Source of the DNA: a virus
Strand: one strand, 5' to 3'
DNA: 59,951 nucleotides
Virus record (IMG/VR): IMGVR_UViG_3300035683_000005
Location: 1 to 59,951 of that record
Shown: one piece after another, positions 14,499 through 59,781 of the stretch
How the letters are laid out: every line of letters starts with the position of its first letter
Position numbering within the stretch: position 1 is the first letter of the stretch
The notes under the pieces: model-generated
Seen by the model: only the letters and a program-made list of their open reading frames with translations
What the model was told of the DNA's origin: nothing
Database searches by the model: none
Program-made: the position numbers and the translations under genes

Positions 14499-16319
14499 AT
14501 GCGCTGTTCATGTTGTGGCAAGATTCCTTACAACTCACTAGAGGAAGCAGAAGCATCCGCGGCGAAGCACCCTTACAGAGTTGAGGCGTACTTTAAACCC
14601 GCCTGCGGTTCATGGCATCTGACAGGTAGCCAGTTTGAACGGGCGAAACGCAACCGAGCGTTCTACATGACGAAGAAGATCCAGCTACGCGATTACCAAG
14701 TTGCGGCAGTAGACGCACTGTTTAAGTACTTCGCCGAGCATACCGGCAACCCTGTTGTGGCGATGCCAACGGGTACGGGGAAGAGCTTGGTGATAGCAGA
14801 GTTCATTCGTCGCGCCTGTCAGACTTACCCAACCACTCGGGTAATGATGCTGACTCACGTGAAGGAACTGATACAGCAGGATATGAGGGCGCTGATCAGT
14901 GTTTGGCCGAGCGCACCGGCAGGTGTTTACAGCGCGGGTTTGAGGCGTCGTGAGGCATCGCGTATTACATTCGCCGGCATCCAGTCGGTTTACACGCGGC
15001 CGCAATTGTTCGGCTTTATCGATCTGATACTGATTGATGAATGCCATTTGGTGAGTGGCAAAGATTCTACTTCTTATCGTCAATTCATCAACGAGCTGAA
15101 GAAGACTAACCCCGCGCTAAAGGTTATTGGCTTTTCTGCAACTCCATATCGGCTCGGCCAAGGTATGCTCACCGACCCGGGCGGTCTTTTCACGGACATC
15201 TGCTTTGATCTCACTTCACGTGACTCGTTCAACTGGATGATCGCACAGGGTTGGGTCTCCAAACTAATCCCAAAGCATACGCGCAACGAGCTCGATGTCC
15301 ACAATGTGCGCGTTCACGGCGGTGAGTTCGTTCTGGCCGAGTTGCAAGCTGCCATCGATAGGATGGAAGTGACGCGCCGCGCCCTTGAAGAAGCTGTTCA
15401 GTTGGCGGAAGGTCGACGCCACTGGCTTGTCTTCGCTACAGGGATTGACCACGCGGAGCACGTGGCAGACGAGCTGGAGCACTTGGGCATTTCTGCCGCA
15501 TCTGTTCACTCCAAGATGTCGGATGGTGTGCGCGATGAACGCCGCGCAGATTTTGAGTCAGGAAAGCTGCGCGCACTGGTCAATAACAATGTGCTAACGA
15601 CGGGTTACGACTTCCCGAAGATCGACTGTATCATAATGCTGCGCCCGACAGCGTCGCCCGGGCTCTGGGTGCAGATGCTCGGCCGCGGCACCCGTCCGGT
15701 GTACCCGGATGATTTCGACGTGAATAACGCCACTGTTCTGGACAGAACCGCCTCTCTCCTGAAGCACGATTGTCTTGTGCTCGACTTTGCGGGCAATACC
15801 GCGCGCCTGGGGCCGATCAACGATCCTGTAATTCCAAAGCGGAAGGGCAAAGGCCCGCCAGGTATCGCGCCAGTACGGCTCTGCGGCGCCTGTGGTTGCT
15901 ATAGCCATGCTGCCGCGGCACACTGTGAGGTATGCGGAGCGGAGTTCCCCCGCAAAGTCAAGATTGAAACAAGCGCTTCTCAAATGGAGCTCGTCGCTGG
16001 GCCTCTGCCGGTTATCGAGAAGATGCCCGTTTCACAGGTGATTTACAGACTCCACCAGAAAGAGGGAAAACCGGCAACGTTGCGTGTGGACTACTATAGC
16101 GGTGTGCGTAGGTTCAGCGAGTATATTTCGATCGAGCACAACGGCTATGCCGGGCATCAGGCACGAAAGTGGTGGGCGATGCGCGCTCCAATGCAATGGG
16201 GATTTCCCAAGACCGCGGAGGAGGCATTAACTGCCGTCAACTGGCTGAAGGTACCCGCTACAATCAGTGTTGAAACCTCGAAGAAGTACCCGGGGATAGC
16301 GAACTATGAATTCGAGTGA
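14499..16319 (+). CDS. Superfamily 2 DEAD/DEAH-box (DECH) DNA helicase with a C-terminal zinc ribbon
   Basis: MPTGTGKS, LILIDECH, SATP and QMLGRGTRP motifs. CGACGC...CEVCG ribbon. Confidence 0.85.
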   Translation: MRCSCCGKIPYNSLEEAEASAAKHPYRVEAYFKPACGSWHLTGSQFERAKRNRAFYMTKKIQLRDYQVAAVDALFKYFAEHTGNPVVAMPTGTGKSLVIAEFIRRACQTYPTTRVMMLTHVKELIQQDMRALISVWPSAPAGVYSAGLRRREASRITFAGIQSVYTRPQLFGFIDLILIDECHLVSGKDSTSYRQFINELKKTNPALKVIGFSATPYRLGQGMLTDPGGLFTDICFDLTSRDSFNWMIAQGWVSKLIPKHTRNELDVHNVRVHGGEFVLAELQAAIDRMEVTRRALEEAVQLAEGRRHWLVFATGIDHAEHVADELEHLGISAASVHSKMSDGVRDERRADFESGKLRALVNNNVLTTGYDFPKIDCIIMLRPTASPGLWVQMLGRGTRPVYPDDFDVNNATVLDRTASLLKHDCLVLDFAGNTARLGPINDPVIPKRKGKGPPGIAPVRLCGACGCYSHAAAAHCEVCGAEFPRKVKIETSASQMELVAGPLPVIEKMPVSQVIYRLHQKEGKPATLRVDYYSGVRRFSEYISIEHNGYAGHQARKWWAMRAPMQWGFPKTAEEALTAVNWLKVPATISVETSKKYPGIANYEFE

Positions 16320-16962: not shown

Positions 16963-16991
16963 TTGACGGGGGTGCCGGGTTGCGTTATACT
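16963..16991 (+). promoter_or_regulatory. Promoter, TTGACG-N17-TATACT
   Basis: -35 at 16963-16968, -10 at 16986-16991. Confidence 0.75.
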
Positions 16992-17033
16992 ACTGTCAGG
17001 GTAATAACGTCCACCGTCAAGGGGCAAACCACA

Positions 17034-17756
17034 ATGTCATCAGAATCTGCGAAGTGGGCAGCTGTTATTCAACAGCTGATCGCCAAGGCGCGCAGCACGG
17101 AGAACGAATTCGAGGCCGAGGCATTTCTGAACAAGGCCAACGAGCTGATGGAGAAGTACCAAATCGAGATCGCTGACTTGCACCCCGAGGAGGATGAGGT
17201 CGTCTTCCACGAGGGGGTCACCTTCTCGGCTTCTTCGCACGACTGGATGTGGGAGCTCTACAGGGCCGTCGGTGCCTACTACGGGTGCGAAAGCGTCCGG
17301 GAGGCCTTCTACAAGGCTGGGCAGAAGGGTGATCACCGGCTCCACTACCAGCAGACGCTGATGGGCCGCAAGTCAGCGATCCTCACCACGAACCTCATGT
17401 ACGAGTACCTGAAGGCCGAGGTCGGGCGCCACGGGCGGCGCATTTCGCAGATCACTGGTCTGAGCCCCGCCGCGCAGTCCCGTCGGGTGGGCGCGTCGCT
17501 GGTCGCCCGCATCTTCCGGATCATACCGCAGAAGAACGAAGCCAGGACCGGGGTCGCCCAAGAGCACGCACTCATCACCTTTGACGCCGTGAAGAAGCTG
17601 AAGGAAGAGCGGTACCCCGCCCTCGAAACAATCAAGAAGGGAGCCCGGAAGACGGACAAGCACTCGAGAGAGGCGGCCATGTCCATTAACCTGAACCTCC
17701 AGGCTAAGGGCGGCCACAAGCTGCACCAGATTGGCGGTGGAACGGGCGATTATTAA
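17034..17756 (+). CDS. DUF2786-like protein, 240 aa
   Basis: N-terminal [33 protein letters not shown] matches the DUF2786 pattern as I recall it. Internal ATG of ORF 16980..17756. Confidence 0.55.
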
Positions 17757-17771: not shown

Positions 17772-17800
17772 TTGACAGTACCGTATAGGGGGGTTACATT
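17772..17800 (+). promoter_or_regulatory. Promoter, TTGACA-N17-TACATT
   Basis: -35 at 17772-17777, -10 at 17795-17800. Confidence 0.7.
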
Positions 17801-17843
17801 AGGGTCAGGCATACGGCAACCGGCAAACAACCAAGGGGCACAG

Positions 17844-18347
17844 ATGGCAACCGAACAGACCGAGATCCCAGCCGCCGAAGAAGCACCGGGCGTGCGTCGC
17901 TTCGAGCGGTCGGAGCTTCAGTCCATCCAGATGGGGGTGCTGTTCCCCATCGCTGAGATGATGAAGATCCACCGCTACGCGGAACTGACGCGTGCTGCGC
18001 TGGTCGAGAAGATTTATGTCATCCAGCACCTGCACCCGAAGGCGATGGAAGCGTTGATCGAAAAACTCGCGAAAATCGAGGACAACCAGCGCCGCAGGCT
18101 TGCGGAAGACGCTCCAAAGACGGTACGGGTGGCGGCCGACGGTACTGAGGTGCCGGTGAAACCACGGGAAAAGAGCGCGGCAGACAGCCCGGTGAAGCGC
18201 GTGTGGGCCATCTGCAATTCGATGCCGAACGCTGCCCGCAAGCACATCATCACCAAGTGCATCGAGCAGGGTGTCAACCCGAACACCGCCGCCACACAGT
18301 ACGCCGCGTGGAAGCGGGACCGGGCGGCAAATGCCGTGGGTGCGTAA
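17844..18347 (+). CDS. Hypothetical protein, 167 aa, carrying the repeated C-terminal module (KRVWAICNSM...RKHIITKCIEQGVNPNTAATQYAAWKR)
   Basis: ATG preceded by caaccaaggggcacag, in the frame of ORF 17772..18347. Confidence 0.65.
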   Translation: MATEQTEIPAAEEAPGVRRFERSELQSIQMGVLFPIAEMMKIHRYAELTRAALVEKIYVIQHLHPKAMEALIEKLAKIEDNQRRRLAEDAPKTVRVAADGTEVPVKPREKSAADSPVKRVWAICNSMPNAARKHIITKCIEQGVNPNTAATQYAAWKRDRAANAVGA

Positions 18348-18442: not shown

Positions 18443-18515
18443 AGGGGTTTGGTGTAGTGGCCTATCACGCCTGCCTTTGGAGCAGGAAACACGGGTTCGA
18501 ATCCCGTAGCCCCAA
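18443..18515 (+). tRNA. tRNA-Gln (anticodon UUG)
   Basis: Hand-folded cloverleaf. Acceptor aggggtt/agcccca with an A1-A72 mismatch. D arm gtgt-agtggccta-tcac. Anticodon arm cctgc-cTTTGga-gcagg. T arm acggg-ttcgaat-cccgt. Confidence 0.8.
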
Positions 18516-18918: not shown

Positions 18919-19038
18919 ATGCCCATGTCAGGGGGCTTGAAGACCCGACGAGTAGCACCAGACGGCAGAGATCCCTTGACCTGGGTGTGACGCGCCCCGC
19001 CCCGGTCCTATCTTCAAGGGCGCACGACAACACAAGGA

Positions 19039-19581
19039 ATGACGCACATGGCACAAGGTGCACGCAAGCCCGGACGGGCGGGTTCCGCCCCTACCACCGA
19101 GACGACGTCGAACACGGAGCCCGCTGCGGCGACGGCCGAGAACACCCCTGCCTCCGAGACCACCGCCACCGCTCCGGTGACGGAGTCGGCCCCGACGGCC
19201 ACCGAGCCGACACCGGCCCCCGCGGCCGAACCCGCCCAGCCGGCGCCGCCGGCCGCCGCGACGAAGCCGGCCAGGGACCAGAAGAACGGGATCACGCGCC
19301 CCGCCGGGAACACCGCGACCGGTCGGGTGTGGGCCATCGCCGACGAGCTGACCACCACCAAGCGCGCTGCCGAGGGTGCCAACGGCGACGAGCGCGCGGG
19401 TCGCAAGGAGGTGATCGACGCTTTCACCGCCGAGGGCGGGAACCAGTCGACCGGCGCCACGCAGTTCGGCCGCTGGCTGCGCTACAACGGGTTCACCGAG
19501 GCGCGCGCCGGTGCTGCCCAGCCCGCCGCGGCGCAGCCCGCGCCCGCGACGGTGGAACCCGCCGAGGCGGTCGAGGCGTAG
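19039..19581 (+). CDS. Hypothetical protein, 180 aa. Ala/Thr/Pro-rich N-terminus plus the repeated module (RVWAIADEL...RKEVIDAFTAEGGNQSTGATQFGRW).
   Basis: ORF track. RBS acaaggaatgacgcac. Confidence 0.65.
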   Translation: MTHMAQGARKPGRAGSAPTTETTSNTEPAAATAENTPASETTATAPVTESAPTATEPTPAPAAEPAQPAPPAAATKPARDQKNGITRPAGNTATGRVWAIADELTTTKRAAEGANGDERAGRKEVIDAFTAEGGNQSTGATQFGRWLRYNGFTEARAGAAQPAAAQPAPATVEPAEAVEA

Positions 19582-19602
19582 TCCACAACGGTCGCCGAAG
19601 TT

Positions 19603-19635
19603 CGAGGGCGGGGGTACGCACCCCCGCCCTTCGTG
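19603..19635 (+). terminator. GC-rich hairpin after gene 19039..19581, a possible terminator
   Basis: agggcggggg-tacgca-cccccgccct, followed by tcgtgtc. Confidence 0.4.
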
Positions 19636-19658
19636 TCTACCTCAACGACCATCCGAAC

Positions 19659-20417
19659 ATGGAAGTTCTGAACAACCAGCCTCCGATGGGTACCGACCGG
19701 CACGCATTGGGGCAGCTAAAGGTTCACAGCTACTTCCCGACGATCCAGGGCGAAGGTATCTTCGCGGGACAAGCTGCGTTCTTCATTCGGCTGATGGGCT
19801 GCAATCTGCAATGCCCAGGATGCGACACCGAGTACACCACGGACGCTCCGCTCTTGCTGTATCCCCGCGCCGTTGTTGAGCTCCTCGAAACGGCCGGTCG
19901 CCACTACGGCGACTTGGTCGTCATCACCGGCGGCGAACCCTTCCGTCAGAACATCACGCCGGCGGTTCTGGAACTCGTGGAACACGGCTACCACGTTCAA
20001 ATCGAAACCAACGGCACGCTCTACCTCGAGAACTTTCCGAAGAGCGAGGAAGTCACGATCGTCTGCAGCCCAAAAACCGCACGGATTAACCCCGTTTTGG
20101 CCGCCCGTGTGGACGCTTTCAAATACGTGATTCAGGCAGGCCACGTTGCGGACGATGGTCTTCCGACGGACGCGCTCTACAACCTCGCCGGCATTGGGCG
20201 TGATCCCGTACGTACGGGTCGCATTGCACGTCGGGTTGCACGGCCGCCGGACGAGTGGGAGGGTCCTGTCTACGTTCAACCGATGGATGAGAAGGACGAT
20301 GTAAAGAACCTGAACAACTTGCGGGAGGCGGCGCGTACCGTGATGAACGGTAGCCCGCGCGACGAGCTGCTCTACGTCCTTGGTACGCAGATGCACAAGG
20401 ACATCGGGCTGCCCTGA
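19659..20417 (+). CDS. queE: 7-carboxy-7-deazaguanine synthase (radical SAM QueE)
   Basis: TIQGEGIFAGQAAFFIRLMGCNLQCPGCDTEY is the QueE CxxxCxxC radical-SAM signature. Internal ATG of ORF 18987..20417. Confidence 0.85.
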   Translation: MEVLNNQPPMGTDRHALGQLKVHSYFPTIQGEGIFAGQAAFFIRLMGCNLQCPGCDTEYTTDAPLLLYPRAVVELLETAGRHYGDLVVITGGEPFRQNITPAVLELVEHGYHVQIETNGTLYLENFPKSEEVTIVCSPKTARINPVLAARVDAFKYVIQAGHVADDGLPTDALYNLAGIGRDPVRTGRIARRVARPPDEWEGPVYVQPMDEKDDVKNLNNLREAARTVMNGSPRDELLYVLGTQMHKDIGLP

Positions 20418-20623
20418 TGCTGGACCTCAGCATTAAGCAGCTTGTTACCGTTCGGAATTACATCGTCGAAGGCATAAACGCTGTGAAGCCTTGGACGGAG
20501 TTGCCGGCGGAGCACCAGATGGGGTCGCCCGAGCGGCTCGCCTACCTGGAGGAGTTGTTGTCTCAGGTTGATGAAGAACTTGAACTAAAAAGGGCACACG
20601 CATGTCAAGCGGAACAATCCTAA
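20417..20623 (+). CDS. Hypothetical protein, 68 aa, inside the deazaguanine cluster
   Basis: ORF track. TGATG coupling to queE. Confidence 0.5.
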   Translation: MLDLSIKQLVTVRNYIVEGINAVKPWTELPAEHQMGSPERLAYLEELLSQVDEELELKRAHACQAEQS

Positions 20624-21486
20624 TTCTGTCCGGCGGGCAGGATTCGACGACGGTGCTGTTCTACGCTCGTCAGCAATACTCGGACAGCCCCGTTCACGCC
20701 ATCACCTTCGACTACGGACAACGCCACTCACGCGAGATCGACGCCGCCAGGATCGTTGCGCGGTTGGCTGGAGTGGCGTCGCACGAGGTTCTCGAACTCC
20801 CCCTCGACATCCTCAAGGGCACATCGCCGCTGATCTCGCAAGAACCTCTCGAGCAGTACGCTGACCACAGATCGCTCCCAGGCGGTCTAGAGAAGACGTT
20901 CGTGCCCATGCGGAACCAGCTTTTCCTCACGGTCGCCTTCAACCGCGCGGTGTGTCTCGGCGCACGACGCATCCTGATCGGCGTTTCGCAGGAGGACTAC
21001 GGCGGCTATCCGGACTGCCGTAGGGAGTTCGTCAAGTGGGCCGAGCGGGCTTCAAACATCGGTCTCGGTCTCACACAGCTCAGCACTCCCGCCCAAGGTT
21101 ACATCGAGGTGGAGACACCGCTCATGTCGCTCAGCAAGGCGGAATCGGTGGAGCTTGCGCTCAAGCTACCTGGGTGCTACGAGGCACTCGCGTTCAGTCA
21201 CACGAGCTACGACGGCGAGTACCCACCGCTCGGCAAGGACCACGCGACGCTGTTGAGGGCTAAGGGCTTCGAGGAGGCGAACGTCCCCGATCCACTTATC
21301 CTGCGTGCGGTCTACGAAAACCGCATGCAGCTGCCGAACAGCCCTACCTATAGGCAGAACCCGGACATCGCCGACTTCTACGGGCGTGTCGCCGAAGCGG
21401 TGGACAGAGAGCGGGCGTATCGGCGCCGGGAAGCGGAACAAGGGCAGTTTCCCGCCTACGAGAAGCGCGGCAGGGAGGGTGTCTGA
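20602..21486 (+). CDS. queC: QueC-like 7-cyano-7-deazaguanine synthase homolog. Atypical: the Zn-binding cysteines are absent and there is a C-terminal extension of about 60 aa.
   Basis: LSGGQDSTT, FVPMRN and GGYPDCR motifs are present. The region that aligns with the canonical TCYxG...CGxCxxC reads SHTSYDGEYPPLGKDHATLL. Confidence 0.8.
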   Translation: MSSGTILILSGGQDSTTVLFYARQQYSDSPVHAITFDYGQRHSREIDAARIVARLAGVASHEVLELPLDILKGTSPLISQEPLEQYADHRSLPGGLEKTFVPMRNQLFLTVAFNRAVCLGARRILIGVSQEDYGGYPDCRREFVKWAERASNIGLGLTQLSTPAQGYIEVETPLMSLSKAESVELALKLPGCYEALAFSHTSYDGEYPPLGKDHATLLRAKGFEEANVPDPLILRAVYENRMQLPNSPTYRQNPDIADFYGRVAEAVDRERAYRRREAEQGQFPAYEKRGREGV

Positions 21487-21983
21487 TGTATACAGTCGAG
21501 CGGTACCACGACATTAGTGCCGGCCACCGCGTCGTCGGCGGGGGCAAGTGCGAGAACCTGCACGGCCACAACTACCGGATCTACTTCACTGTCGCGCCAG
21601 AGTCGCGCGGTGTGGTTGAAGTTGTGCGTGACGATGGTCGCTCACACGAGAGTATCTACCATCCGCCGAAGAGACAGCTCGACGACCGGGGCATGGTGAT
21701 CGACTTCGGCGTTGTGAAGACGACACTGTGTGACTGGCTCGAAGAGGTATGGGACCACAAGATGCTGCTGTGGGAGGAAGACCCGATGTGCTTCGCCATC
21801 CACGCGGTGGCTCCCGAGGCGGTTGTCGAGGTCGCATTCAACCCCACCGCGGAGAACATGGCACGCTACCTCGTCGAAGTGGTCGGCCCTCTGCGCCTGA
21901 AGGGGACAGGGGTTCGGCTTGTCAGGGTGCGGGTGGAGGAGACCCGCAAATGCTCTGCAACCTTCGCCCTGCCGGGGTACTGA
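21486..21983 (+). CDS. queD: 6-carboxytetrahydropterin synthase (QueD / PTPS family)
   Basis: KCENLHGHNY is the CxxxHGH motif. 165 aa. TGATG coupling on both sides. Confidence 0.85.
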   Translation: MYTVERYHDISAGHRVVGGGKCENLHGHNYRIYFTVAPESRGVVEVVRDDGRSHESIYHPPKRQLDDRGMVIDFGVVKTTLCDWLEEVWDHKMLLWEEDPMCFAIHAVAPEAVVEVAFNPTAENMARYLVEVVGPLRLKGTGVRLVRVRVEETRKCSATFALPGY

Positions 21984-22888
21984 TGGAGAAAACGAAGCTC
22001 ACGCATGGTGAGGTTGGCGGCCTCGTCGGTGATCTACTACAGAAGTTCGGTGCACTGAATCTGAGGGGTCCGGGTGTCTCAGTGTATGCCGTTCCCCGCG
22101 GCGGGGTGCCCGTGGCGTACCTGCTTGCCGGGCGCGCCCCGGGACTCCGCGTCGTCGACGATCCGATGATCGCCCATGTATTCGTCGACGACATCATCGA
22201 CTCCGGCCGGACACGCGATCGCTACCAGACAACGTATCAGAAGCCGTTTCTCGCCCTCGTGGACAAGCTGGGCGATCCGGCTCACGCGCAGATGGGCTGG
22301 GTGGTGTTCCCCTGGGAACTGTGCGAGGACGGCGCGGACGAGAACATCGAAGAGAACATCGTACGGATTCTCGAGTTCATCGGCGAAGATCCGTCGAGAG
22401 AAGGACTTCATGACACTCCCAAGCGTGTTGCGGCGGCATGGCTGGAGTGGACGTCCGGGTATCGGGTTGACCCGCAAGAACTGATCCGCTGCTTTAGCGA
22501 CGGTGGTGAGGGTTACGACGAGATGGTTCTCGTGCGACAAATTCCGTTCTACAGTCATTGCGAGCACCACATGGCGCCATTCTTCGGCACCGTCGATGTG
22601 GCGTACATCCCAAACGGCAGGATCATTGGTTTATCCAAGATCCCGCGCATCGTTGAGGTGTTCGCGCGTCGCCTTCAAGTTCAGGAGCGCTTAACCGCTC
22701 AGATCGCGATGGCCCTGATGAAGGGACTTGAACCGAAGGGAGTGGCCGTTTCGATCCGTGCTCGTCACCTCTGCATGGAAAGTCGGGGTGTCCACAAGCA
22801 GGGGAGCGACACGGTCACCAACGTGCTTCTCGGTGTCTTTCGCGTGTCGCCACCCGCTCGGGCGGAGTTCATGTCGGCAATCGGCTGA
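21983..22888 (+). CDS. folE: Fusion protein: N-terminal type I phosphoribosyltransferase-like domain plus GTP cyclohydrolase I (FolE)
   Basis: N-terminus VYAVPRGGVPVAYLLA...HVFVDDIIDSGRTRDRY is the PRPP-binding loop. C-terminus FYSHCEHHMAPFFG and QVQERLTAQIA are GCH-I motifs. ATG at 21983 overlaps the queD TGA. Confidence 0.8.
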   Translation: MEKTKLTHGEVGGLVGDLLQKFGALNLRGPGVSVYAVPRGGVPVAYLLAGRAPGLRVVDDPMIAHVFVDDIIDSGRTRDRYQTTYQKPFLALVDKLGDPAHAQMGWVVFPWELCEDGADENIEENIVRILEFIGEDPSREGLHDTPKRVAAAWLEWTSGYRVDPQELIRCFSDGGEGYDEMVLVRQIPFYSHCEHHMAPFFGTVDVAYIPNGRIIGLSKIPRIVEVFARRLQVQERLTAQIAMALMKGLEPKGVAVSIRARHLCMESRGVHKQGSDTVTNVLLGVFRVSPPARAEFMSAIG

Positions 22889-22913
22889 CGGTACCCCGCC
22901 GGGGTTGGCCCCC

Positions 22914-22942
22914 TTGACAGGCAGGCCCCGGCGGGGTATACT
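22914..22942 (+). promoter_or_regulatory. Promoter, TTGACA-N17-TATACT
   Basis: -35 at 22914-22919, -10 at 22937-22942. Confidence 0.75.
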
Positions 22943-22964
22943 ATAGGGGGTATACTATAGGGGG
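22937..22964 (+). repeat. Tandem duplication, 2 x 14 bp, of the -10 block (TATACTATAGGGGG)
   Basis: Read directly: tatactataggggg tatactataggggg. Confidence 0.9.
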
Positions 22965-22998
22965 TGTACGTTGTGATCCTTCAGTAAGCGGAGAGTGC

Positions 22999-23298
22999 AT
23001 GCCATACAACAAGCGCGACCGTGAAACAGCCCCCTTCCGGGATACGCCGGACAGCGTGCAATTCGGACTCTTGTACGACATTGCCGAACTCGAACGGAAC
23101 ATCGTTTCGCTGACAGAGAGCGAAGCTGAACTGCTCGATCGTTTGCGTGGGGTGCGTAAAACGCGCGACAACACTGCGGACAGGATGTACGCGCTTGAGA
23201 GCGCCGTAGACGCTTACGATCGTGCCAAGTACGAGATGAAGCACGATCTCCACTGGCCCCAACAGCGGTATCAGCGGAGGCGAAATGAAACCTGGTGA
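22999..23298 (+). CDS. Hypothetical coiled-coil protein, 99 aa
   Basis: ORF track. RBS gcggagagtgc. Confidence 0.6.
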   Translation: MPYNKRDRETAPFRDTPDSVQFGLLYDIAELERNIVSLTESEAELLDRLRGVRKTRDNTADRMYALESAVDAYDRAKYEMKHDLHWPQQRYQRRRNETW

Positions 23299-23614
23299 TC
23301 GTGTCAGACTAACGGTTGACCTAATCGAGGTCGCTACTGGCGACCATCCTGATTTACTCGTTGCGCCGCGGGGTACAGTAGGCCGATTGGTTCCCCGTTT
23401 TGCTCAGTTCTTCGCGTACTACGTGGAGATTCAAACAACCGCGCGCGGTTATCCGCTGGAAGTGGTTGGAGTCCACTCGCACGAAATTCAATCAGTTGAG
23501 ATTGTGCCCTACACGCCGAAAATTGTCTTCTTCGAGCCAGTGGATCCCGACTACATCGTAGCACGCGTCGAGCACTGCCGGCGATCGATTCTCCGCCTCT
23601 TCAATCAGATCTAG
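23285..23614 (+). CDS. Hypothetical protein, 109 aa
   Basis: ORF track. Confidence 0.55.
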   Translation: MKPGDRVRLTVDLIEVATGDHPDLLVAPRGTVGRLVPRFAQFFAYYVEIQTTARGYPLEVVGVHSHEIQSVEIVPYTPKIVFFEPVDPDYIVARVEHCRRSILRLFNQI

Positions 23615-23616
23615 CT

Positions 23617-24549
23617 GTGAGGATCTATCTGGCCGCCATGATGCAGAATGGCTTCCATCAGGGTAGCCAGGCTTATCTGCGCCTTACGGAGCGGGAACGG
23701 GAAGTTGTGGACTCTGTGAAGTACCGCCTCGACTCTTATCACTATATCGGCAATGAGCGGATCGCTACGCGCATTCGGTCTACTGGTCTACGTATCTTCC
23801 TCGACTCGGGAGCATTCTCCGCCTACACCCAAGGCATCACCGTCGATGTTCGGCAATACTGCTCCTATATCCACGATTACAAGGATATCCTCGAGACCGT
23901 TGAGCTGGAGAACGGTACTGTTCTTCTTCTTGCATCGGTACTTGACGCGATCGGTGATCCGACAGGTACGTGGTACAATCAGAAGCGAATGGAAGACATG
24001 GGGGTCCGCGCGCTCCCCTGCTATCACTACGGGGAGCCTCCAGAAGTCCTTCAATACTACGCGGCGAATTACGAGTACATCACGATCGGTGGGATGGTTC
24101 CAATCTCCACCCCCCAGCTGAAGATTTGGCTAGATGGGGTGTGGGGCAAATACCTCACAAACCCGGACGGCACACCCAAGGTGAAGGTTCACGGCTTCGG
24201 CTTGACGTCTGTGCAGCTGATGGCGCGATATCCCTGGTTCTCTGTAGACTCCTCTTCGTGGGTGCAGTCTGGCGGTATCGGCAATATCTTTTTGCCACAA
24301 TTCGGAATGATCGCGGTATCGGAGTTTAGCCCAAACCGGAAAGAGCCCGGGAAGCACATTGACAACATGCCGGAGCCCCAGCAACAAGCTTTGCTCCGAA
24401 TTGTTGAATCAATGGGCTTTGATGTTGAACGACTGCGCAAGGAGCACCTGAGTCGCAAGGTGTTCAACATCGCCACGTATACGGGCATCATGGAAGAGGC
24501 CGTTCACCAGAACAAGCGTTTTCGCCAACTCCAACCCACGTTCTTCTGA
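23617..24549 (+). CDS. dpdA: DpdA-type DNA 7-deazaguanine transglycosylase (TGT superfamily)
   Basis: 310 aa, GTG start. IFLDSGAFSAY, YITIGGMVP and HGFGLT segments resemble phage DpdA as I recall it. Sits in a cluster with queCDE and folE. Confidence 0.75.
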   Translation: MRIYLAAMMQNGFHQGSQAYLRLTEREREVVDSVKYRLDSYHYIGNERIATRIRSTGLRIFLDSGAFSAYTQGITVDVRQYCSYIHDYKDILETVELENGTVLLLASVLDAIGDPTGTWYNQKRMEDMGVRALPCYHYGEPPEVLQYYAANYEYITIGGMVPISTPQLKIWLDGVWGKYLTNPDGTPKVKVHGFGLTSVQLMARYPWFSVDSSSWVQSGGIGNIFLPQFGMIAVSEFSPNRKEPGKHIDNMPEPQQQALLRIVESMGFDVERLRKEHLSRKVFNIATYTGIMEEAVHQNKRFRQLQPTFF

Positions 24550-24788
24550 TGACATACCGCCGATTCTTAGACGAGTGCCGCATCCGTGTCGAAGGCTTCG
24601 TGGCATGGGTAAAGTTCGTAGACGCCGAACTTGTGCGACGCAACCAACTCCGTGTGTTGTGCTGTAGTTCTTTTGAGTATCAGCTTGCCCGCGCATACAG
24701 CGAGGAGCACGGAATCACCACTGCCGACCTCGTGGCAATGGCGTCTCGGGAGCGCCGCCCCTGGCGCGAGAACCTGGAGCTGTACTGA
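24549..24788 (+). CDS. Hypothetical protein, 79 aa
   Basis: ORF track. TGATG coupling. Confidence 0.55.
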   Translation: MTYRRFLDECRIRVEGFVAWVKFVDAELVRRNQLRVLCCSSFEYQLARAYSEEHGITTADLVAMASRERRPWRENLELY

Positions 24789-25195
24789 TGCGTATTCTGT
24801 TCACGGGCGACCGCAATTACACAGACGGCACATTTGTCGCCGACACACTTGCAGAACTTGAGCGCCTTTGTGGTCAACCGTCCGAAGTTTTCATCGCCAT
24901 TGTGGGTAGGGCGCGTGGACTGGACACTCTTGCAGAGCACCATGCTACACTGCGAGGCTGGCAGATAGAACCTTACCCCGCAGATTGGGCACAGTACGGG
25001 CGAGCGGCTGGCCCGATCCGCAACCAGCAAATGCTCGATGCCCGGCCCGCCTGCTGTCTAGCATTTCACGACAATTTCGAATCCTCACGGGGAACGCTTG
25101 ACATGGTCAACCGCTGCCGAAAGATCGGACTACCCACCGCCCTGTATGGGCACCGGCAGCTTCTGAAGCAGTGGAATTGGGGCACCAATGCTTGA
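24788..25195 (+). CDS. SLOG-fold / DUF2493-like protein, 135 aa
   Basis: MRILFTGDRNY...ADWAQYGRAAGPIRNQQML resembles the DUF2493 pattern. Confidence 0.5.
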   Translation: MRILFTGDRNYTDGTFVADTLAELERLCGQPSEVFIAIVGRARGLDTLAEHHATLRGWQIEPYPADWAQYGRAAGPIRNQQMLDARPACCLAFHDNFESSRGTLDMVNRCRKIGLPTALYGHRQLLKQWNWGTNA

Positions 25196-26150
25196 AACGC
25201 TTAAGTTCGTTCGTGGTGCGGTTGCGACCAAAGATTTCCAGCCTGCGCTGACTCACTTCCGCATCAAAGATGGCCGCGTCATGGGCTATAACGGCACGAT
25301 TGCGCTTTCTAGCCCAATTGCACTAGACGTAAATGCATCGCCGAAGGCTGTGCCGTTCGTCAAGGCGATTGAGCGGTGTCAGAACGCGACAACCGTCGTA
25401 CACATGACTCCAGCCGGCCGCATTTCATTGAAGTCAGGCAAATTCAAAGTCATCATCGAGTGCTGTGAAGAGAGTGAGGTAATGGACGCGATCGTACCCG
25501 AAGGCGAAATGATGCCAACACCCGCCACCTTTGTGGAGACATTGAAGCTGCTCGACCGGTTCGTATGCACTGATGCAACACCGGACAGACGTTGGTCGAA
25601 CGGCATTTTGCTACGGGGCCAGTCTGCGTACGCCACAAGCAATATCGTGATTGTTGAGAAGTGGCTGGGTCAGCAGCTGCCCTTTGAGGTGAATATTCCT
25701 GGACCTGCTGTAAAAGAAATCTTGCGCATAGGTCTTGAGCCTGTTGGTATCCAGATCGGAGAACGGTCGATTACGATGCACTATCCCGGTGAGCGGTGGT
25801 TGCGTGCTCAGATGTGGGACGTGCAGTGGCCTGACCTCAGTGTATATCTCGATCAGTCCGGCGAATTTGAGCCCTTTCCGCCAGAGCTCTTTGATGCAGC
25901 CGAGACTCTGAAGCCCTTCTACGACATAGAGGGCAGGCTCTTCTTTCGCGGCGACAGAGTGTCCACAAGTGCGGACGAAGGGGCGGGGGGTTCAATCGAG
26001 ATGTCGGGTGTGCCTCTGCGCGGTGCCTTCCACCACGTTCATCTGCTTTCCCTCAAGGGTGTTGCAGACACGATAGACTTCACCAAGCGCCCTGCGCCCT
26101 TCCGCGGAAATCTGTTGAGGGGTGTCATTCTACCCATGCACGACGAATAG
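25188..26150 (+). CDS. DNA polymerase III beta sliding-clamp-like protein
   Basis: 320 aa. N-terminus LKFVRGAVATKDFQPALTHFRI resembles DnaN-like phage clamps. Neighbourhood includes polA. Confidence 0.5.
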   Translation: MLETLKFVRGAVATKDFQPALTHFRIKDGRVMGYNGTIALSSPIALDVNASPKAVPFVKAIERCQNATTVVHMTPAGRISLKSGKFKVIIECCEESEVMDAIVPEGEMMPTPATFVETLKLLDRFVCTDATPDRRWSNGILLRGQSAYATSNIVIVEKWLGQQLPFEVNIPGPAVKEILRIGLEPVGIQIGERSITMHYPGERWLRAQMWDVQWPDLSVYLDQSGEFEPFPPELFDAAETLKPFYDIEGRLFFRGDRVSTSADEGAGGSIEMSGVPLRGAFHHVHLLSLKGVADTIDFTKRPAPFRGNLLRGVILPMHDE

Positions 26151-26440: not shown

Positions 26441-26618
26441 TTTTCCAACCCGCCGTGTTCGTTCAAGAGGCGTGGGCTCCTACGGTCCCCGTCTTGGTTG
26501 GCGCATTCGCTTGTCTTTGGACTGTGGGCATACGGTTGAACGCCGCTATGATCAGTCACACCCACACGAGCGTGCACGGTGCGAATTTTGCCCATCATTG
26601 ACGCATGCCACGGACTGA
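26427..26618 (+). CDS. Hypothetical protein, 63 aa
   Basis: ORF track. Overlaps both neighbours by 14 nt. Confidence 0.45.
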   Translation: MPLTDFPTRRVRSRGVGSYGPRLGWRIRLSLDCGHTVERRYDQSHPHERARCEFCPSLTHATD

Positions 26619-28647
26619 TTCAGTCGGACTCTTCTGGCAGGACGTAGCACGGGCAAAGGGAAACCGTGTAGCGCGTGTGATGCCGCCGATCCCGGATACG
26701 GGTTGGGTGCCGCCGACTACGTTCCCTAACCTGGCGGGTGCCAGGGCACTTTCGTTCGACGTCGAAACCAAGGACCCCGAACTAAAGAAACGGGGCCCTG
26801 GCTGGGCACGTGGCAAGGGCCATTTGTGTGGCCTGGCGGTGGGTACAGACGACGGGGGGCGGTGGTACTTTCCGATGCGCCACGAAGTCGAGAAAGACCA
26901 AAACCTTGATCCGGATCACGTACTGGCGTGGGCGCGCGACACATTAGGCAATCCACGCCAGCCGAAGATCGGCGCGAATATCACGTACGACATCGGTTGG
27001 CTGAAGGAAGAAGGAGTTGAGGTACGGGGTCCGCTCTACGACGTACAGTTTGCGGAGGCGTTACTAGATGAAAGGGCACGAGTCAACCTCGAAGAACTCG
27101 GACAACGCTACCTCGGGCAAGGTAAGCAGAGCAACCTTCTTTACGAGTGGTGCGCCGCTTATTACGGGGGTCGTTCAACCGCAAACGATCAAGGCGGAAA
27201 TATCCATCGCGCTCCTCCGCGGCTGGTGGGGCCGTACGCGGAAAGTGATGTCGATATTCCGTTCCGCGTTCTAGACAAGCAGTGGCCGCTGCTGGTTCAG
27301 CAGAATTTGCACGCACTCTTTACAATGGAGTGCGAACTTATTCCACTGATGATAGCAATGCGGTTCGCGGGTGTGCGCGTGGACTACGACCGCGCTCAGC
27401 ACCTGCACGATGAAATGCTCGGACTTCGCGACCAGTCAGAAAGGGAGGTCTATAGCGGACCGTCCGTAAAACAGATAGACGCAGAAATTCGTGGTATAGT
27501 CGGGTTTGAGGTGAACACCGACGCCTCAGCAAGCATCGCGCGCGCATTCGATACTCTGGGGCTGCGTTATGGCCGCACGGAAAAAGGCGCACCGAGCTTC
27601 CGTGCTGGCTTCCTCGAGACCGTACAACACCCCCTCGCCGAACTGATCCTGCGTCGTAAGCGGTTGAAGAAGCTGATCGGTACGTTCCTCAAGGGTTATA
27701 TTCTTGACTCACACGTGAATGGCCGGCTCTTCGGTCAGTTCCATCAGTTGCGGGCGAGCGGTAAGGGGGCCAGGTCCGGTCGGTACTCGTCCAGCACGCC
27801 GAATCTTCAGAATATTCCGAGCAGGTCCGTGTTGGGCAAAATTATCAGAACAATCTTTATTCCAGATATCGGGCACAAGCAGTGGCGGAAAAAGGACTAC
27901 AGCCAAATCGAGTACCGCGGACTCGCGCACTACGCTGTCGGACCCGGTGCCGATGATGTGCGGGCACGCTACCTGGCTGATCCGAGAACAGATTTCCACA
28001 AGATGGTGCACGGTATCATTCTTGCGCAGACAGGGCAGGATCTCGACCGCGCGTATGTGAAGAACACGAATTTCGGCACAGTCTATGGGATGGGGGTGGC
28101 GAAGTTGGCGGTGCAGCTTGGCATCCCGTTTGTGCTCGCAAAACAAGTCTACGAGACAATCCATGGCGCCGCGCCTTTTATGAAGGCGACTATGGACGAG
28201 ACTATGATCGAAGCGCAGAGGACAGGCTACATTACTACCATCCTCGGCCGTCGGTCGCGGTTCGACCTATGGGTGCCGTTCGATTGGGAGGAGCGGCAGA
28301 ACGCGTGGCCGCTGCCGTACGAGCAAGCTATCACACGCTACCGCGATCCGGTTCGTGCATATCTCCACAAGGCGCTCAACCGGCGGTTGCAGGGCTCGGC
28401 AGCTGACCTGATCAAAGCCGCGATGTTGCAGTGTTGGAAGGACGGTGTCTTCGACTATGTGGGGGTGCCTCGGTTGACGGTTCACGACGAGCTGGACTTC
28501 AGCGACGCCGGACTCCAATACTCAGAAGAAGCGTTCGCGCATATCAACAGGGTCATGGAGAACGCGATCCAGTTCCGTGTGCCAATCATGGTCGAAGAGG
28601 AAGTTGGTCCGAATTGGGGTGAGGTGAAGAAACTCAAGGCAGCTTAA
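26605..28647 (+). CDS. polA: Family A DNA polymerase (Pol I-like) with a 3'-5' exonuclease domain
   Basis: ExoI LSFDVET. Motif A DYSQIEYRGLAH. Motif B RAYVKNTNFGTVYGMG. Motif C TVHDELDF. Confidence 0.9.
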   Translation: MPRTDSVGLFWQDVARAKGNRVARVMPPIPDTGWVPPTTFPNLAGARALSFDVETKDPELKKRGPGWARGKGHLCGLAVGTDDGGRWYFPMRHEVEKDQNLDPDHVLAWARDTLGNPRQPKIGANITYDIGWLKEEGVEVRGPLYDVQFAEALLDERARVNLEELGQRYLGQGKQSNLLYEWCAAYYGGRSTANDQGGNIHRAPPRLVGPYAESDVDIPFRVLDKQWPLLVQQNLHALFTMECELIPLMIAMRFAGVRVDYDRAQHLHDEMLGLRDQSEREVYSGPSVKQIDAEIRGIVGFEVNTDASASIARAFDTLGLRYGRTEKGAPSFRAGFLETVQHPLAELILRRKRLKKLIGTFLKGYILDSHVNGRLFGQFHQLRASGKGARSGRYSSSTPNLQNIPSRSVLGKIIRTIFIPDIGHKQWRKKDYSQIEYRGLAHYAVGPGADDVRARYLADPRTDFHKMVHGIILAQTGQDLDRAYVKNTNFGTVYGMGVAKLAVQLGIPFVLAKQVYETIHGAAPFMKATMDETMIEAQRTGYITTILGRRSRFDLWVPFDWEERQNAWPLPYEQAITRYRDPVRAYLHKALNRRLQGSAADLIKAAMLQCWKDGVFDYVGVPRLTVHDELDFSDAGLQYSEEAFAHINRVMENAIQFRVPIMVEEEVGPNWGEVKKLKAA

Positions 28648-58006: not shown

Positions 58007-58265
58007 ATACGGGTAGGGCAGGCGGGCAGGGCAGGCGGGCAGGTTAACCGGGCCCAAGGGGCACCGGGGCATGTTTTACAACTTGGGTTAATGGGCGGGG
58101 GGCTGGGCCCCCCACTGGCAGGGGGTGTACACCCACCGTAGCGGGCGGGGGTACACCCGTACGGCCGGCCCCCCTGGCACTACCGCCAGGGGGTACCAAG
58201 GCCCCCCAGCGGGGCCACCAACACCCCCGCCACCCTGGCGGGGGGTAACTACCAAGGGGCACACA

Positions 58266-58796
58266 ATGGCAAAGCACAACGAGCAGCAGGCCGGCACCGC
58301 AGTGGTGCTGGTGCGCACCGAGGGGGCCACCGAAACCCCCGAACTGGCAGCGGCCCTGGCAAGCATGGCCGGGGCCACCGCACCGCGGCGCCGCAGCAAG
58401 CTGGCGGCTACGGCCTGGGCGGTCGACCTGGGCGGCAAGCGGCTGCTGGCAGGCCGCGCCAAGCGGCGGGCCAAGGGTGGCGACGATGGGCTGGCGGCCG
58501 CCAAGGCCGAGCTGGCCGCACTACTGAAGCGGGTAGCAGAGTTGCAGGAGCTGGTAGCCGAGAAGCAAAACCACTACCTCTGGACCAGCAAACCCGCCAG
58601 CCCCTGCAGGCTGGTACGAGAAATCTTCCTGGCAAAGGCCTGGGAAGCCCAGAGGCTGCCGGTACGGGGCACGGTACTGAAGGCATGCACCAACGCAGGG
58701 ATCGCGGAGAACACAGCCAAAACCCAATACCAGCTGAACCGCAAGCGGTGGCTGGCGGGCGAGCTGACACTCGAGGACGCGGTTGCCGAAGCGTAG
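58266..58796 (+). CDS. Hypothetical protein, 176 aa, with the repeated module (...VLKACTNAGIAENTAKTQYQLNRKRW)
   Basis: ATG preceded by ccaaggggcacaca. Internal start of ORF 58125..58796. Confidence 0.6.
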   Translation: MAKHNEQQAGTAVVLVRTEGATETPELAAALASMAGATAPRRRSKLAATAWAVDLGGKRLLAGRAKRRAKGGDDGLAAAKAELAALLKRVAELQELVAEKQNHYLWTSKPASPCRLVREIFLAKAWEAQRLPVRGTVLKACTNAGIAENTAKTQYQLNRKRWLAGELTLEDAVAEA

Positions 58797-58886
58797 CAGA
58801 CCGGGGTGGGGCGGGTGATACTGCCCCACCCCCGTGCCTACCCGAACGGGTAGGCGGTAGGGCAACACGAACCACGGAGCAGAATA

Positions 58887-59057
58887 ATGTCGACTCACAC
58901 GAAAGTCGCGCAGGGAAGCGGATGGTACGTTCAGCGCCACTGGTGGGCGGAGGGACCTCGCTACCTCTTCATCGGTCTGAACGGCCAGCAGAATCAGTGG
59001 GTCAGCCGAGAATGGGTCGCGCGGGTACGCGCTCAAGGCGCCAAGGTGGGCAGATGA
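58887..59057 (+). CDS. Hypothetical Trp-rich small protein, 56 aa
   Basis: ATG preceded by cacggagcagaata. Read by hand: MSTHTKVAQGSGWYVQRHWWAEGPRYLF... Confidence 0.5.
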   Translation: MSTHTKVAQGSGWYVQRHWWAEGPRYLFIGLNGQQNQWVSREWVARVRAQGAKVGR

Positions 59058-59302
59058 GGTCGCCGCGCTGGTGGGGCGGCGAGAAGCCGAAGGTGGAACA
59101 CGACGAGGTCGGCGGCTGCATGGCGACCGTGACCACAAGTGGGGTGGAGCTGCACCACTACGACAGCGGAACGCGCTGGAAGCTCGACCGCATGACGCTA
59201 CCGGCCGCAAAGCGGGCGCTGAAGCGGTTGAAGGAGAACGAGCAGAAGATGCGACCGAGCTGGCTGCGGGCGGAAGGCTACAAGCAGGTGGTGCCGCTGT
59301 AG
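59054..59302 (+). CDS. Hypothetical protein, 82 aa
   Basis: ATGA coupling. Internal start of ORF 58685..59302. Confidence 0.55.
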   Translation: MRSPRWWGGEKPKVEHDEVGGCMATVTTSGVELHHYDSGTRWKLDRMTLPAAKRALKRLKENEQKMRPSWLRAEGYKQVVPL

Positions 59303-59361
59303 GTCGGGTCGGGGGCGGGGCGGGTGCCCCACCCCAAGTACACAAACCAAGGAGCTGAACC

Positions 59362-59781
59362 ATGAAAGTATGCGTCGCGACACTGCGGATCCCCAGCACG
59401 ATTCAGATCGGGGACGACGCGGAAGACACGATGAACCCACTCGCTAACCTCGAAGAGGAGCTGAGCACGGAAGGGTTCGAGCGGGGCGTCGAGTTCGAAG
59501 CGAACTACAATGTCGAACCGAACGAGCTGCGGTGCTACGACTGGCGCTGCTCGAGGATCGCGACACGGTGGCTCGAAGAGCTGCTCGTCGAAGACGCGAC
59601 GGACGACGACCTGATCTACCGGGACGAGATGGTGAACGAGCTCGTCAGGATGTCTGCTCAGGCGGAGTGCGACGAAGAGCTGTTCGACAAGGTGCACGAA
59701 GCAATCCGGGACAGCATCGACATCAGCAACCTGCGGCGGATGGCGAAGCTGAACGGGGCGGATGCGGCAATGGGTACTTGA
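59362..59781 (+). CDS. Hypothetical strongly acidic early protein, 139 aa
   Basis: ORF track. RBS ccaaggagctgaacc. Confidence 0.65.
   Translation: MKVCVATLRIPSTIQIGDDAEDTMNPLANLEEELSTEGFERGVEFEANYNVEPNELRCYDWRCSRIATRWLEELLVEDATDDDLIYRDEMVNELVRMSAQAECDEELFDKVHEAIRDSIDISNLRRMAKLNGADAAMGT

Follow-up and report, generated by a model that had tools for sequence, protein, structure and literature searches.

The DNA analysed here, hereafter the window, is the 59,951-nt viral record IMGVR_UViG_3300035683_000005, a metagenome contig with a tailed-phage layout. It makes up nearly all of the 59,965-bp contig JAXMNH011931054.1 (assembly GCA_034691575.1), to which an exact look-up of the QueC protein led; for the DpdA protein no identical record was found. 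On its plus strand, between positions 19659 and 24549, it encodes a five-gene module for the modification of DNA with a 7-deazaguanine base, comprising queE, queC, queD and folE together with dpdA within 4.9 kb. An earlier note on this DNA had described these genes as a complete folE/queD/queE/queC set of the preQ0 pathway accompanied by dpdA; profile hidden Markov models (HMMs), tblastn and structure models confirmed the five genes, their positions and their strand, and supported the completeness of the module. The genes are tightly packed, with stops and starts that overlap or abut (Table 1), as illustrated by folE, whose ATG at 21983 overlaps the stop codon of queD (ATGA). A longer open reading frame (ORF) covering positions 18987-20417 (476 aa) was discarded as a high-GC read-through artefact, the sensible start of queE being located at 19659.

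Assignment of the module genes

The queE product matches Pfam Radical_SAM (E = 4.3e-10) and PHROG 2076, 'QueE-like' (1.8e-46), carries the radical-SAM cysteine triad CxxxCxxC within the motif CNLQCPGC, and exhibits 44% identity with QueE of phage CAjan (E = 8e-61). Its top five NCBIfam matches are all QueE models, with E-values from 1e-20 to 1e-16. QueD is recognized by Pfam PTPS (4.5e-22) and PHROG 2389 (2.2e-45) and contains the sequence CENLHGH, corresponding to the catalytic/zinc motif CxxxHGH, which sets it apart from DpdL and its LxxxHRHxF motif (PMC10516641). The catalytic domain of the folE product matches Pfam GTP_cyclohydroI (PF01227; 6.9e-73, residues 123-301) and TIGR00063, with a score of 226.1 above the cut-off of 181.6, and presents the motifs CEHH and QERLT. 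The profile HMMs therefore matched the QueE, QueC, QueD and FolE families named in the earlier note, with two scores that count against an unreserved assignment: the best NCBIfam score of QueE (74.3 bits) lies under the equivalog cut-offs of 200-300, and QueD scores 62.9 with TIGR03367 (2.8e-17), for which the cut-off is 89.25.

The dpdA product matches PHROG 887 (2.4e-68). Using tblastn, 231 phage records were matched, with full-length identities of 45-53% to the DpdA proteins of 9g, CAjan-type phages, iggy and others, and E-values down to 5e-100. Identity reaches 48% with 9g DpdA over 100% of the length (E = 3e-89) and 53% with the protein of Variovorax phage VPv64, and is about 44-46% with the CAjan and iggy proteins, the alignment with which contains 75 invariant columns. 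The protein displays the motifs FLDSGAFS, SVLDAIGD, LPCYH, TIGGMVP, HGFGLT and RYPWFSVDSSSW, and the residues invariant with CAjan and iggy DpdA include FLDSGAFS, SVLDxIGD, HGFGxT and RYPWxSxDSSSW. Moreover, nine DpdA1 sequences agree without exception at D63 of FLDSGAFS and at D211 of SVDSSSW. We take these two residues to be the equivalents of the catalytic aspartates of TGT, with (F/V)LDSGAF corresponding to TGT DSGGFQ and the second Asp located in xDSSSW; this equivalence rests on motif knowledge, since searches of the PDB with the single sequence and with a nine-sequence profile returned no meaningful match. The Pfam scan gave no match for this protein, with none to Pfam TGT (PF01702) even at E <= 10, and the model for bacterial DpdA, NF041059, gave 19.1 bits (4.6e-4), below its cut-off of 200. 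Both results are consistent with the observation that phage DpdA proteins form clusters separate from TGT and from bacterial DpdA (PMC6884629). The placement of this gene in the TGT/DpdA family by the earlier note is thus upheld by the PHROG match and by full-length phage DpdA homology. Judged by that homology and by its linkage to folE, queD, queE and queC, the gene at 23617-24549 is a phage dpdA of the DpdA1 type, with a predicted base-exchange activity.

A preQ0 module might also serve mainly as auxiliary metabolism, boosting the preQ0 and queuosine-tRNA supply of the host with no modification of phage DNA, a possibility that has been raised for phages that carry preQ0 genes but lack DpdA (PMC6884629). 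Here, however, a full-length DpdA1 with all the conserved motifs belongs to the same cluster and lies beside the replication genes. Furthermore, 9g DpdA failed to complement E. coli tgt and yet modified DNA (PMC6884629). We consider this explanation hardly credible for the window.

To place the module among known phages, its 4.9 kb were compared by megablast with the 50,697 phage records of INPHARED, with zero nucleotide-level matches. An exact-peptide scan of IMG/VR with DpdA found nothing, and an alignment-based scan, run with aligned DpdA sequences, retrieved 80 contigs, which are included in a comparison set of 88 related loci. A queE-queC-queD-folE-dpdA-clamp(-polA) arrangement is present in 66 of these 88 loci; sliding clamp homologs occur in 85 and PolA homologs in 43, in the same order. 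The longer arrangement helicase...queE-queC-queD-folE-dpdA-clamp-polA is shared with iggy, CAjan, VpKK5, a Stenotrophomonas phage, Me-ZS1, RHEph04 and Erebus. The study of iggy described the module order as conserved across the Queuovirinae, with inserted hypothetical genes allowed (PMC10484667). As matched by gene order and neighbours, the cassette is a 7-deazaguanine DNA-modification module embedded in the replication module, of the Queuovirinae-like siphophage type. The module is genuine and complete, typical of the DpdA1 type, and belongs to a phage lineage that is new and uncultivated.

Table 1. Features of the module and of its immediate surroundings, with positions in the window
Feature	Position	Strand	Assignment or basis
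GC-rich hairpin	19606-19629	+	read from the sequence; left module edge
queE	19659-20417	+	radical-SAM 7-carboxy-7-deazaguanine (CDG) synthase, 252 aa
orf68	20417-20623	+	small ORFan; overlaps queE stop and queC start
queC	20602-21486	+	7-cyano-7-deazaguanine (preQ0) synthase, Cys-less phage clade, 294 aa
queD	21486-21983	+	6-carboxytetrahydropterin synthase, 165 aa; start overlaps queC stop
PRT-like N-terminal domain of the folE product	21983-22327	+	profile, AlphaFold2 (AF2), Foldseek
GTP cyclohydrolase I (FolE type IA) catalytic domain	22328-22888	+	Pfam, TIGR00063
sigma-70-like promoter match	22914-22942	+	consensus scan, pattern only
orf99	22999-23298	+	coiled-coil-like ORFan
orf109	23285-23614	+	ORFan; ends 3 nt before dpdA
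dpdA	23617-24549	+	DpdA1-type DNA guanine transglycosylase (predicted), 310 aa, GTG start
orf79	24549-24788	+	ORFan; overlaps dpdA stop
SLOG-family (YAcAr/DUF2493) protein	24788-25195	+	Pfam YAcAr, PHROG 289
sliding clamp	25188-26150	+	right-hand neighbour, conserved
family-A DNA polymerase (PolA)	26605-28647	+	right-hand neighbour; small ORFs between clamp and PolA

A QueC lacking the zinc site and the predicted end product

The QueC protein, encoded between queE and queD, matches Pfam QueC (8.2e-49) and scores 157.9 with TIGR00364, above the cut-off of 150.3. Its AF2 model has a pLDDT of 88, residues 200-280 included, and the best folds in the PDB are the QueC structures 2PG3 and 3BL5 (target-normalised TM-score 0.74-0.83). 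Where these two proteins have their four zinc cysteines, the aligned residues of the window QueC are S, L, D and T, and the C(x)8CxxCxxC motif is absent from it. A 2026 study of the family describes this motif as its hallmark and zinc as needed for function, and found by mutagenesis that YxQxHxxE, VPxRN, YPDC and the Tyr of the TCY/zinc region are essential (PMC13329287). The window protein keeps the SGGQDS phosphate-binding loop (residues 10-15), YGQRHSRE (Y38-E45), VPMRN (V101-N105), YPDC (Y136-C139) and Y203 within HTSYDG, the last four of which are invariant in the QueC alignment, and it ends in a conserved C-terminal extension (PDPLILRA...). Compared with canonical QueC (Cluster 1 of PF06508, PMC13329287), it shows every motif except the zinc cysteines.

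The earlier note had regarded this QueC as atypical, which holds for the loss of the zinc cysteines and not for its uniqueness, since all 120 best homologs in a set of 5.8 billion proteins are alike in this respect. A Cys-less QueC is encoded in roughly one half of the 88 related loci, and the motif HT(S/A/G)YDGxYPP...H(A/S)xLLRAKGF...PDPL is common to the proteins of the window, the Stenotrophomonas phage and iggy; QueC of CAjan, VpKK5 and Rosebush retains Cys4. Across these alignments the Cys-less QueC is a large, family-wide phage clade, not peculiar to the window. The clade seems undescribed, no description of it having been found in the QueC/deazaguanine literature searched. Because it has lost the zinc site yet kept the catalytic residues, the role of zinc in QueC becomes directly testable.

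The proposed pathway follows the established one, with the enzymes of the window assigned by homology. FolE would convert GTP into dihydroneopterin triphosphate, from which QueD would form 6-carboxytetrahydropterin, and the radical-SAM enzyme QueE would rearrange the latter into CDG. QueC would then transform CDG, via the amide (ADG), into the nitrile preQ0 at the expense of two ATP and ammonia. Finally, the DpdA1-type transglycosylase would replace guanine by preQ0 in double-stranded DNA, after replication and at short sequence motifs, of which GA in iggy and GA/GGC in CAjan are examples. By analogy with CAjan, Rosebush and iggy, roughly 15-30% of G might be modified, and the resulting dPreQ0-DNA would be resistant to many restriction enzymes.

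The combination of QueC and DpdA1 yields dPreQ0 in CAjan (~32% of G), Rosebush (~28%) and iggy (16.5%, at GA motifs), and Gat-QueC leads to dG+ (PMC6884629, PMC10484667, PMC10516641). Beyond the module, a Pfam scan of 36 further non-structural ORFs revealed no tailoring domain of the QueF, GATase, ArcS, DUF3109 (DpdM), formyltransferase (DpdN) or methyltransferase types, and the module proteins likewise had none in Pfam, NCBIfam or PHROG. Thus, the absence of queF, gat-queC and arcS stated in the earlier note was reproduced within this set, and its expectation of dPreQ0 or dADG as the product holds. Since no downstream tailoring enzyme was found, dPreQ0 is expected, and on sequence and analogy we regard it as the probable end product with considerable confidence.

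The loss of all four zinc ligands, in a family in which zinc is reported to be required, would also fit a QueC that halts at the amide like the proposed ADG synthase QueC* of Campylobacter phages, leaving DpdA to insert ADG and giving dADG-DNA. However, all motifs that face substrate and ATP are retained, as is the essential Tyr in what was the zinc region, DpdA clusters with the preQ0-inserting DpdA1 enzymes, and the DNA of iggy, which has the same Cys-less type of QueC, contains strictly dPreQ0 (PMC10484667). These data make dADG an improbable product. With regard to QueC* itself, the gene was not found in the first 50 kb of CP220 (FN667788), and the main text of PMC10516641 gives no diagnostic motif for it.

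The strictly dPreQ0 DNA of iggy is, by analogy, the best available support for the notion that the Cys-less QueC may still deliver preQ0. Two considerations temper the expectation of dPreQ0 in the window. The product of iggy does not prove that the phage QueC makes the nitrile, because its Pseudomonas host has a queC too and none of the phage QueC enzymes has been assayed (PMC6884629). Moreover, the window is a metagenome contig known from sequence alone. With dPreQ0 as the predicted product, an uncultivated, 60-kb phage lineage of roughly 60% GC joins the phages predicted to carry this base, which helps to predict resistance to restriction and to Cas9, as well as sequencing artefacts, in metagenomic phages. 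The module leaves existing knowledge of the system unchanged.

A phosphoribosyltransferase-like domain fused to FolE

The N-terminal ~115 aa of the folE product, preceding the catalytic domain, contain the sequences PRGG, VDDIIDSGRT and WVVFPWE as well as K95 and W106. A profile of six homologs matched the phosphoribosyltransferase (PRT) XGPRT from end to end (E = 1.3e-5), with ~17 residues corresponding to the flexible catalytic loop (beta2-beta3) and ~9 hood residues gone. The AF2 model of the domain has a pLDDT of 85, and the top 47 Foldseek matches in the PDB are all purine PRTs, nearly all of them 6-oxopurine XGPRT/HGXPRT enzymes (TM-score 0.5-0.6). At least 80% of 134 representatives conserve the pyrophosphate (PPi) loop (RGG, within PRGG), the phosphoribosyl pyrophosphate (PRPP) motif VDDIIDSGRT and its pair of acidic residues, the putative catalytic Asp, Lys95, Trp106 and FPWE. 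In profile and predicted structure, the N-terminal domain is a trimmed 6-oxopurine phosphoribosyltransferase-like fold, which may have transfer activity. Asp92 of XGPRT presumably contacts N7 of the purine, and the aligned Asp is conserved in the phage domain, which would favour true purines; similarly, the first Trp of the XGPRT WxxxPW motif, which we take to stack on the base, has an equivalent. The best viral structural match of the domain is BFVD M4T1R9, a 'phosphoribosyl transferase' of Cellulophaga phage phiST (E = 5.6e-5, TM-score 0.66), a phage that swaps G for 7-deazaguanine via a different DpdA family (PMC10516641).

An exhaustive HMMER search of 1.84 billion representatives identified 472 clusters with the PRT-like domain. 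Of the best 150 family members, about two thirds (>100) stand alone as single-domain proteins, with roughly a further quarter being FolE fusions of ~300 aa; two of the three standalone copies examined are located between queC/queD and folE. The domain is found in 44 of the 88 related loci, in 43 of which it forms part of a FolE fusion, and PRT::FolE is also encoded in 34 cultured-phage records (NP1, PaMx25, Quinobequin-P09, VpKK5 and others), the annotated ones of which label it only 'GTP cyclohydrolase'. Hence the fused FolE pointed out in the earlier note is real, but it is common and does not track the product, as the domain occurs alongside Cys-less QueC, Cys4 QueC and Gat-QueC. On these grounds, the idea that it sets the end product was rejected. 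Its presence with all three QueC types indicates an upstream, supply-side role, and its fusion to FolE, or to the non-homologous FolE2, across QueC types links it to the GTP cyclohydrolase step and not to the end product. A literature search combining PRT, FolE, deazaguanine and phage yielded no description of the fusion, and the word 'phosphoribosyl' does not occur in the key deazaguanine papers searched for the term. This family-wide accessory domain seems, therefore, to be undescribed.

Several variants of this arrangement were observed among the homologs. Some PRT::FolE proteins (P0014, P0050, P0063) carry an intein, in some cases with an HNH endonuclease, ~70 residues into the FolE catalytic domain. 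A 564-aa protein (L095:2967-4661, P0044), encoded inside a queC-queD-queE cluster, joins the PRT-like domain to FolE2 (PF02649). In the position that the PRT-like gene occupies elsewhere, between queD and folE, Erebus contains a nucleoside 2-deoxyribosyltransferase-like gene (L008:6379-6765; PF05014/DUF4406), and Me-ZS1 has a gene for 133 aa between queC and queD without a Pfam match (L006:6516-6917). Homology of these two genes to the PRT-like domain was rejected, blastp revealing no similarity and the Erebus protein belonging to a different Pfam family; they may nevertheless mark a recurring 'purine salvage' accessory slot.

We proposed that the PRT-like domain salvages the guanine released by DpdA. 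It would bind a 6-oxopurine and PRPP and convert the expelled guanine into GMP, which would refill the GTP pool used by FolE, and the removal of the by-product would pull the exchange forward. If the domain is an active guanine PRT, the base swap would become a closed guanine-to-preQ0 cycle. More generally, the domain suggests that the phages encoding it also handle the guanine by-product or the supply of GTP. The full form of this proposal, which we advance only tentatively, combines an XGPRT-like domain acting as an unrecognised sixth component, i.e., an active loop-less guanine PRT that recycles DpdA-excised guanine, with a Cys-less QueC acting as a zinc-independent preQ0 synthase.

A number of facts speak against guanine salvage by this domain. 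It has lost the flexible catalytic loop that type I PRTs carry, and Pfam PF00156 fails at 12.8 bits against a gathering threshold of 26.3, so that the domain may only bind a ligand. In addition, GMP is two kinase steps away from GTP, the substrate of FolE. The domain is also dispensable, because 9g, CAjan and iggy, which are without it, modify their DNA well.

The deleted loop and the sub-threshold PF00156 score, together with a hood shorter than that of XGPRT, would suit a ligand-sensing or regulatory domain that binds guanine, GMP, PRPP or (p)ppGpp and tunes FolE. Regulators with a PRT fold exist, such as PurR and PyrR, and the fusion to two GTP cyclohydrolase folds is as compatible with regulation as with substrate supply. 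Set against this are the conservation of the PPi loop, the PRPP motif, the putative catalytic Asp, Lys95 and Trp106 across the representatives described above, and the predominance of standalone copies among the best family members, unusual for a pure allosteric module. A purely regulatory role is possible but, in our judgement, somewhat doubtful.

Interleaved ORFs, neighbouring genes and known systems

Four small ORFs (orf68, orf99, orf109 and orf79) overlap or abut the module genes. No Pfam, NCBIfam or PHROG match was obtained for orf68, orf109 or orf79, and orf99 gave only a sub-threshold match to the coiled-coil Pfam family APG6_N (0.0026). When compared by blastp with the ORFs of the 88 related loci, none of the four had a homolog there, and orf109, the one also searched against 5.8 billion proteins, retrieved only itself. 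The gene calls of the public assembly include orf68 as well. Related phages contain small unrelated genes at the same module junctions, so the four positions look like tolerated insertion slots and not like conserved parts; from these comparisons, the ORFs look like lineage-specific passengers.

The earlier note had left room for a new 7-deazaguanine derivative. In that case, a small ORFan or the PRT-like domain would act as a tailoring enzyme, e.g., as a ToyH-like preQ0/CDG phosphoribosyltransferase opening a nucleotide-level branch. In toyocamycin biosynthesis, the 6-oxopurine-type PRT ToyH acts on preQ0. Four uncharacterised ORFs do lie inside the module, in contact with its genes, and which base the PRT-like domain would accept is not readable from sequence. 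Nonetheless, these ORFs encode 68-109 aa with no enzyme-family match, and the PRT-like domain is fused to the first enzyme of the pathway, not the last, occurs with every QueC type and conserves the Asp aligned with XGPRT Asp92, whose presumed N7 contact favours true purines. The case for a new derivative is weakened further by the widespread occurrence of both the Cys-less QueC and the PRT fusion. Because the interleaved ORFs have no homologs in the related loci, we judge such a derivative very unlikely.

At the left edge of the module, the hairpin listed in Table 1 comprises a 10-bp stem (GGGCGGGGGT/ACCCCCGCCC) and the loop ACGC, and is located 30 nt 5' of queE and 25 nt past the stop codon that ends the preceding gene. 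Read from the sequence, it might act as a terminator or attenuator; a terminator scan did not call it because its T-tract is weak. The promoter-like pattern, TTGACA-17-TATACT, matches 11 of 12 positions of the sigma-70 consensus and sits in the 110 nt that separate folE from orf99, the sole sizeable intergenic gap of the module. From this putative promoter, transcription of dpdA and of the two ORFans that precede it may proceed apart from that of the biosynthetic genes.

To the right of dpdA and orf79, the SLOG-family protein (Pfam YAcAr, 1.3e-12; PHROG 289, 2.2e-25) belongs to a family present in 7 of the 88 loci. Its iggy homolog is encoded between the clamp and PolA genes, and the protein of the window is probably outside the module. 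It represents a nucleotide-binding fold beside a base-exchange enzyme.

Upstream of the module, the window encodes a helicase (14499-16319) and its only tRNA, tRNA-Gln (anticodon TTG, 18443-18515, plus strand). A 258-aa protein (16980-17756, plus strand) located between the helicase and the module matches DUF2786 (1.1e-10) and, weakly, DUF7168. Two further plus-strand proteins, of 191 aa (17772-18347) and 180 aa (19039-19581), the latter with a low-complexity N-terminus rich in Ala, Pro, Thr and Glu, have in common a C-terminal domain of ~50 aa. This domain recurs upstream of queE in 61 of the 88 loci, often in two to three copies per locus, and in iggy and CAjan the gene directly 5' of queE bears the annotation of a putative transcriptional activator. 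Downstream of the module there are long minus-strand ORFs, and lysis, tail and small-terminase Pfam matches were found among the scanned ORFs. Within the ranges 1-36891 and 58125-59781, Pfam matches include a cold-shock domain, a UvrD-type helicase, AAA_24, DUF669, a PDDEXK nuclease, an NrS-1-polymerase-like helix bundle, an amidase_2 endolysin, the small terminase and a weak ThyX.

Concerning the individual domains, the FolE N-terminal domain has its best profile and fold match in XGPRT (Gpt) of E. coli and Yersinia (PDB 1A95, 5XTK). Features common to both are the PPi loop (RGG), the PRPP motif (DDxxDxGxT) and WxxxPW in the C-terminal part. The phage domain differs from XGPRT in its size (~115 vs 152 aa), in an identity of only ~20%, in being fused to FolE and in lacking the flexible-loop segment.

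Among cultured phages, the closest relatives of the module are those of Stenotrophomonas phage vB_SM_ytsc_ply2008005c, Variovorax phage VPv64 and Pseudomonas phages PSASB_03 and Baskent_P4_1, with full-length identities of 61% for QueC, 53% for DpdA and 52% for PRT::FolE. These phages also combine the Cys-less QueC with the PRT::FolE fusion, annotated in them only as GTP cyclohydrolase, whereas their genomes measure 42-43 kb, compared with ~60 kb here, and contain no interleaved ORFans. No DNA-modification analysis of these four phages was found.

With respect to phages whose DNA has been analysed, CAjan (Seuratvirus) and 9g (Nonagvirus) present the same five functions, the same order and the same placement of the clamp and PolA genes, with DpdA identities of 44-48%, and for their DpdA1 enzymes there is genetic and mass-spectrometric evidence of preQ0 insertion into DNA (PMC6884629, PMC7544227). 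They differ in that CAjan has a QueC with the Cys4 zinc site and encodes a YhhQ-like transporter, that 9g uses Gat-QueC to produce dG+, and that neither FolE has the PRT-like domain. Iggy (Iggyvirus, Queuovirinae-related; PMC10484667) exhibits the same order, queE-(small orf)-queC-queD-folE-dpdA-(small orf)-clamp-polA, shares the SLOG homolog and has the same Cys-less QueC with the extension PDPLVLRA, at 47% identity to that of the window. In iggy, however, FolE is without the PRT-like domain, QueC has ~100 extra C-terminal residues, the small ORFs are unrelated to those of the window, and there is no similarity at the nucleotide level.

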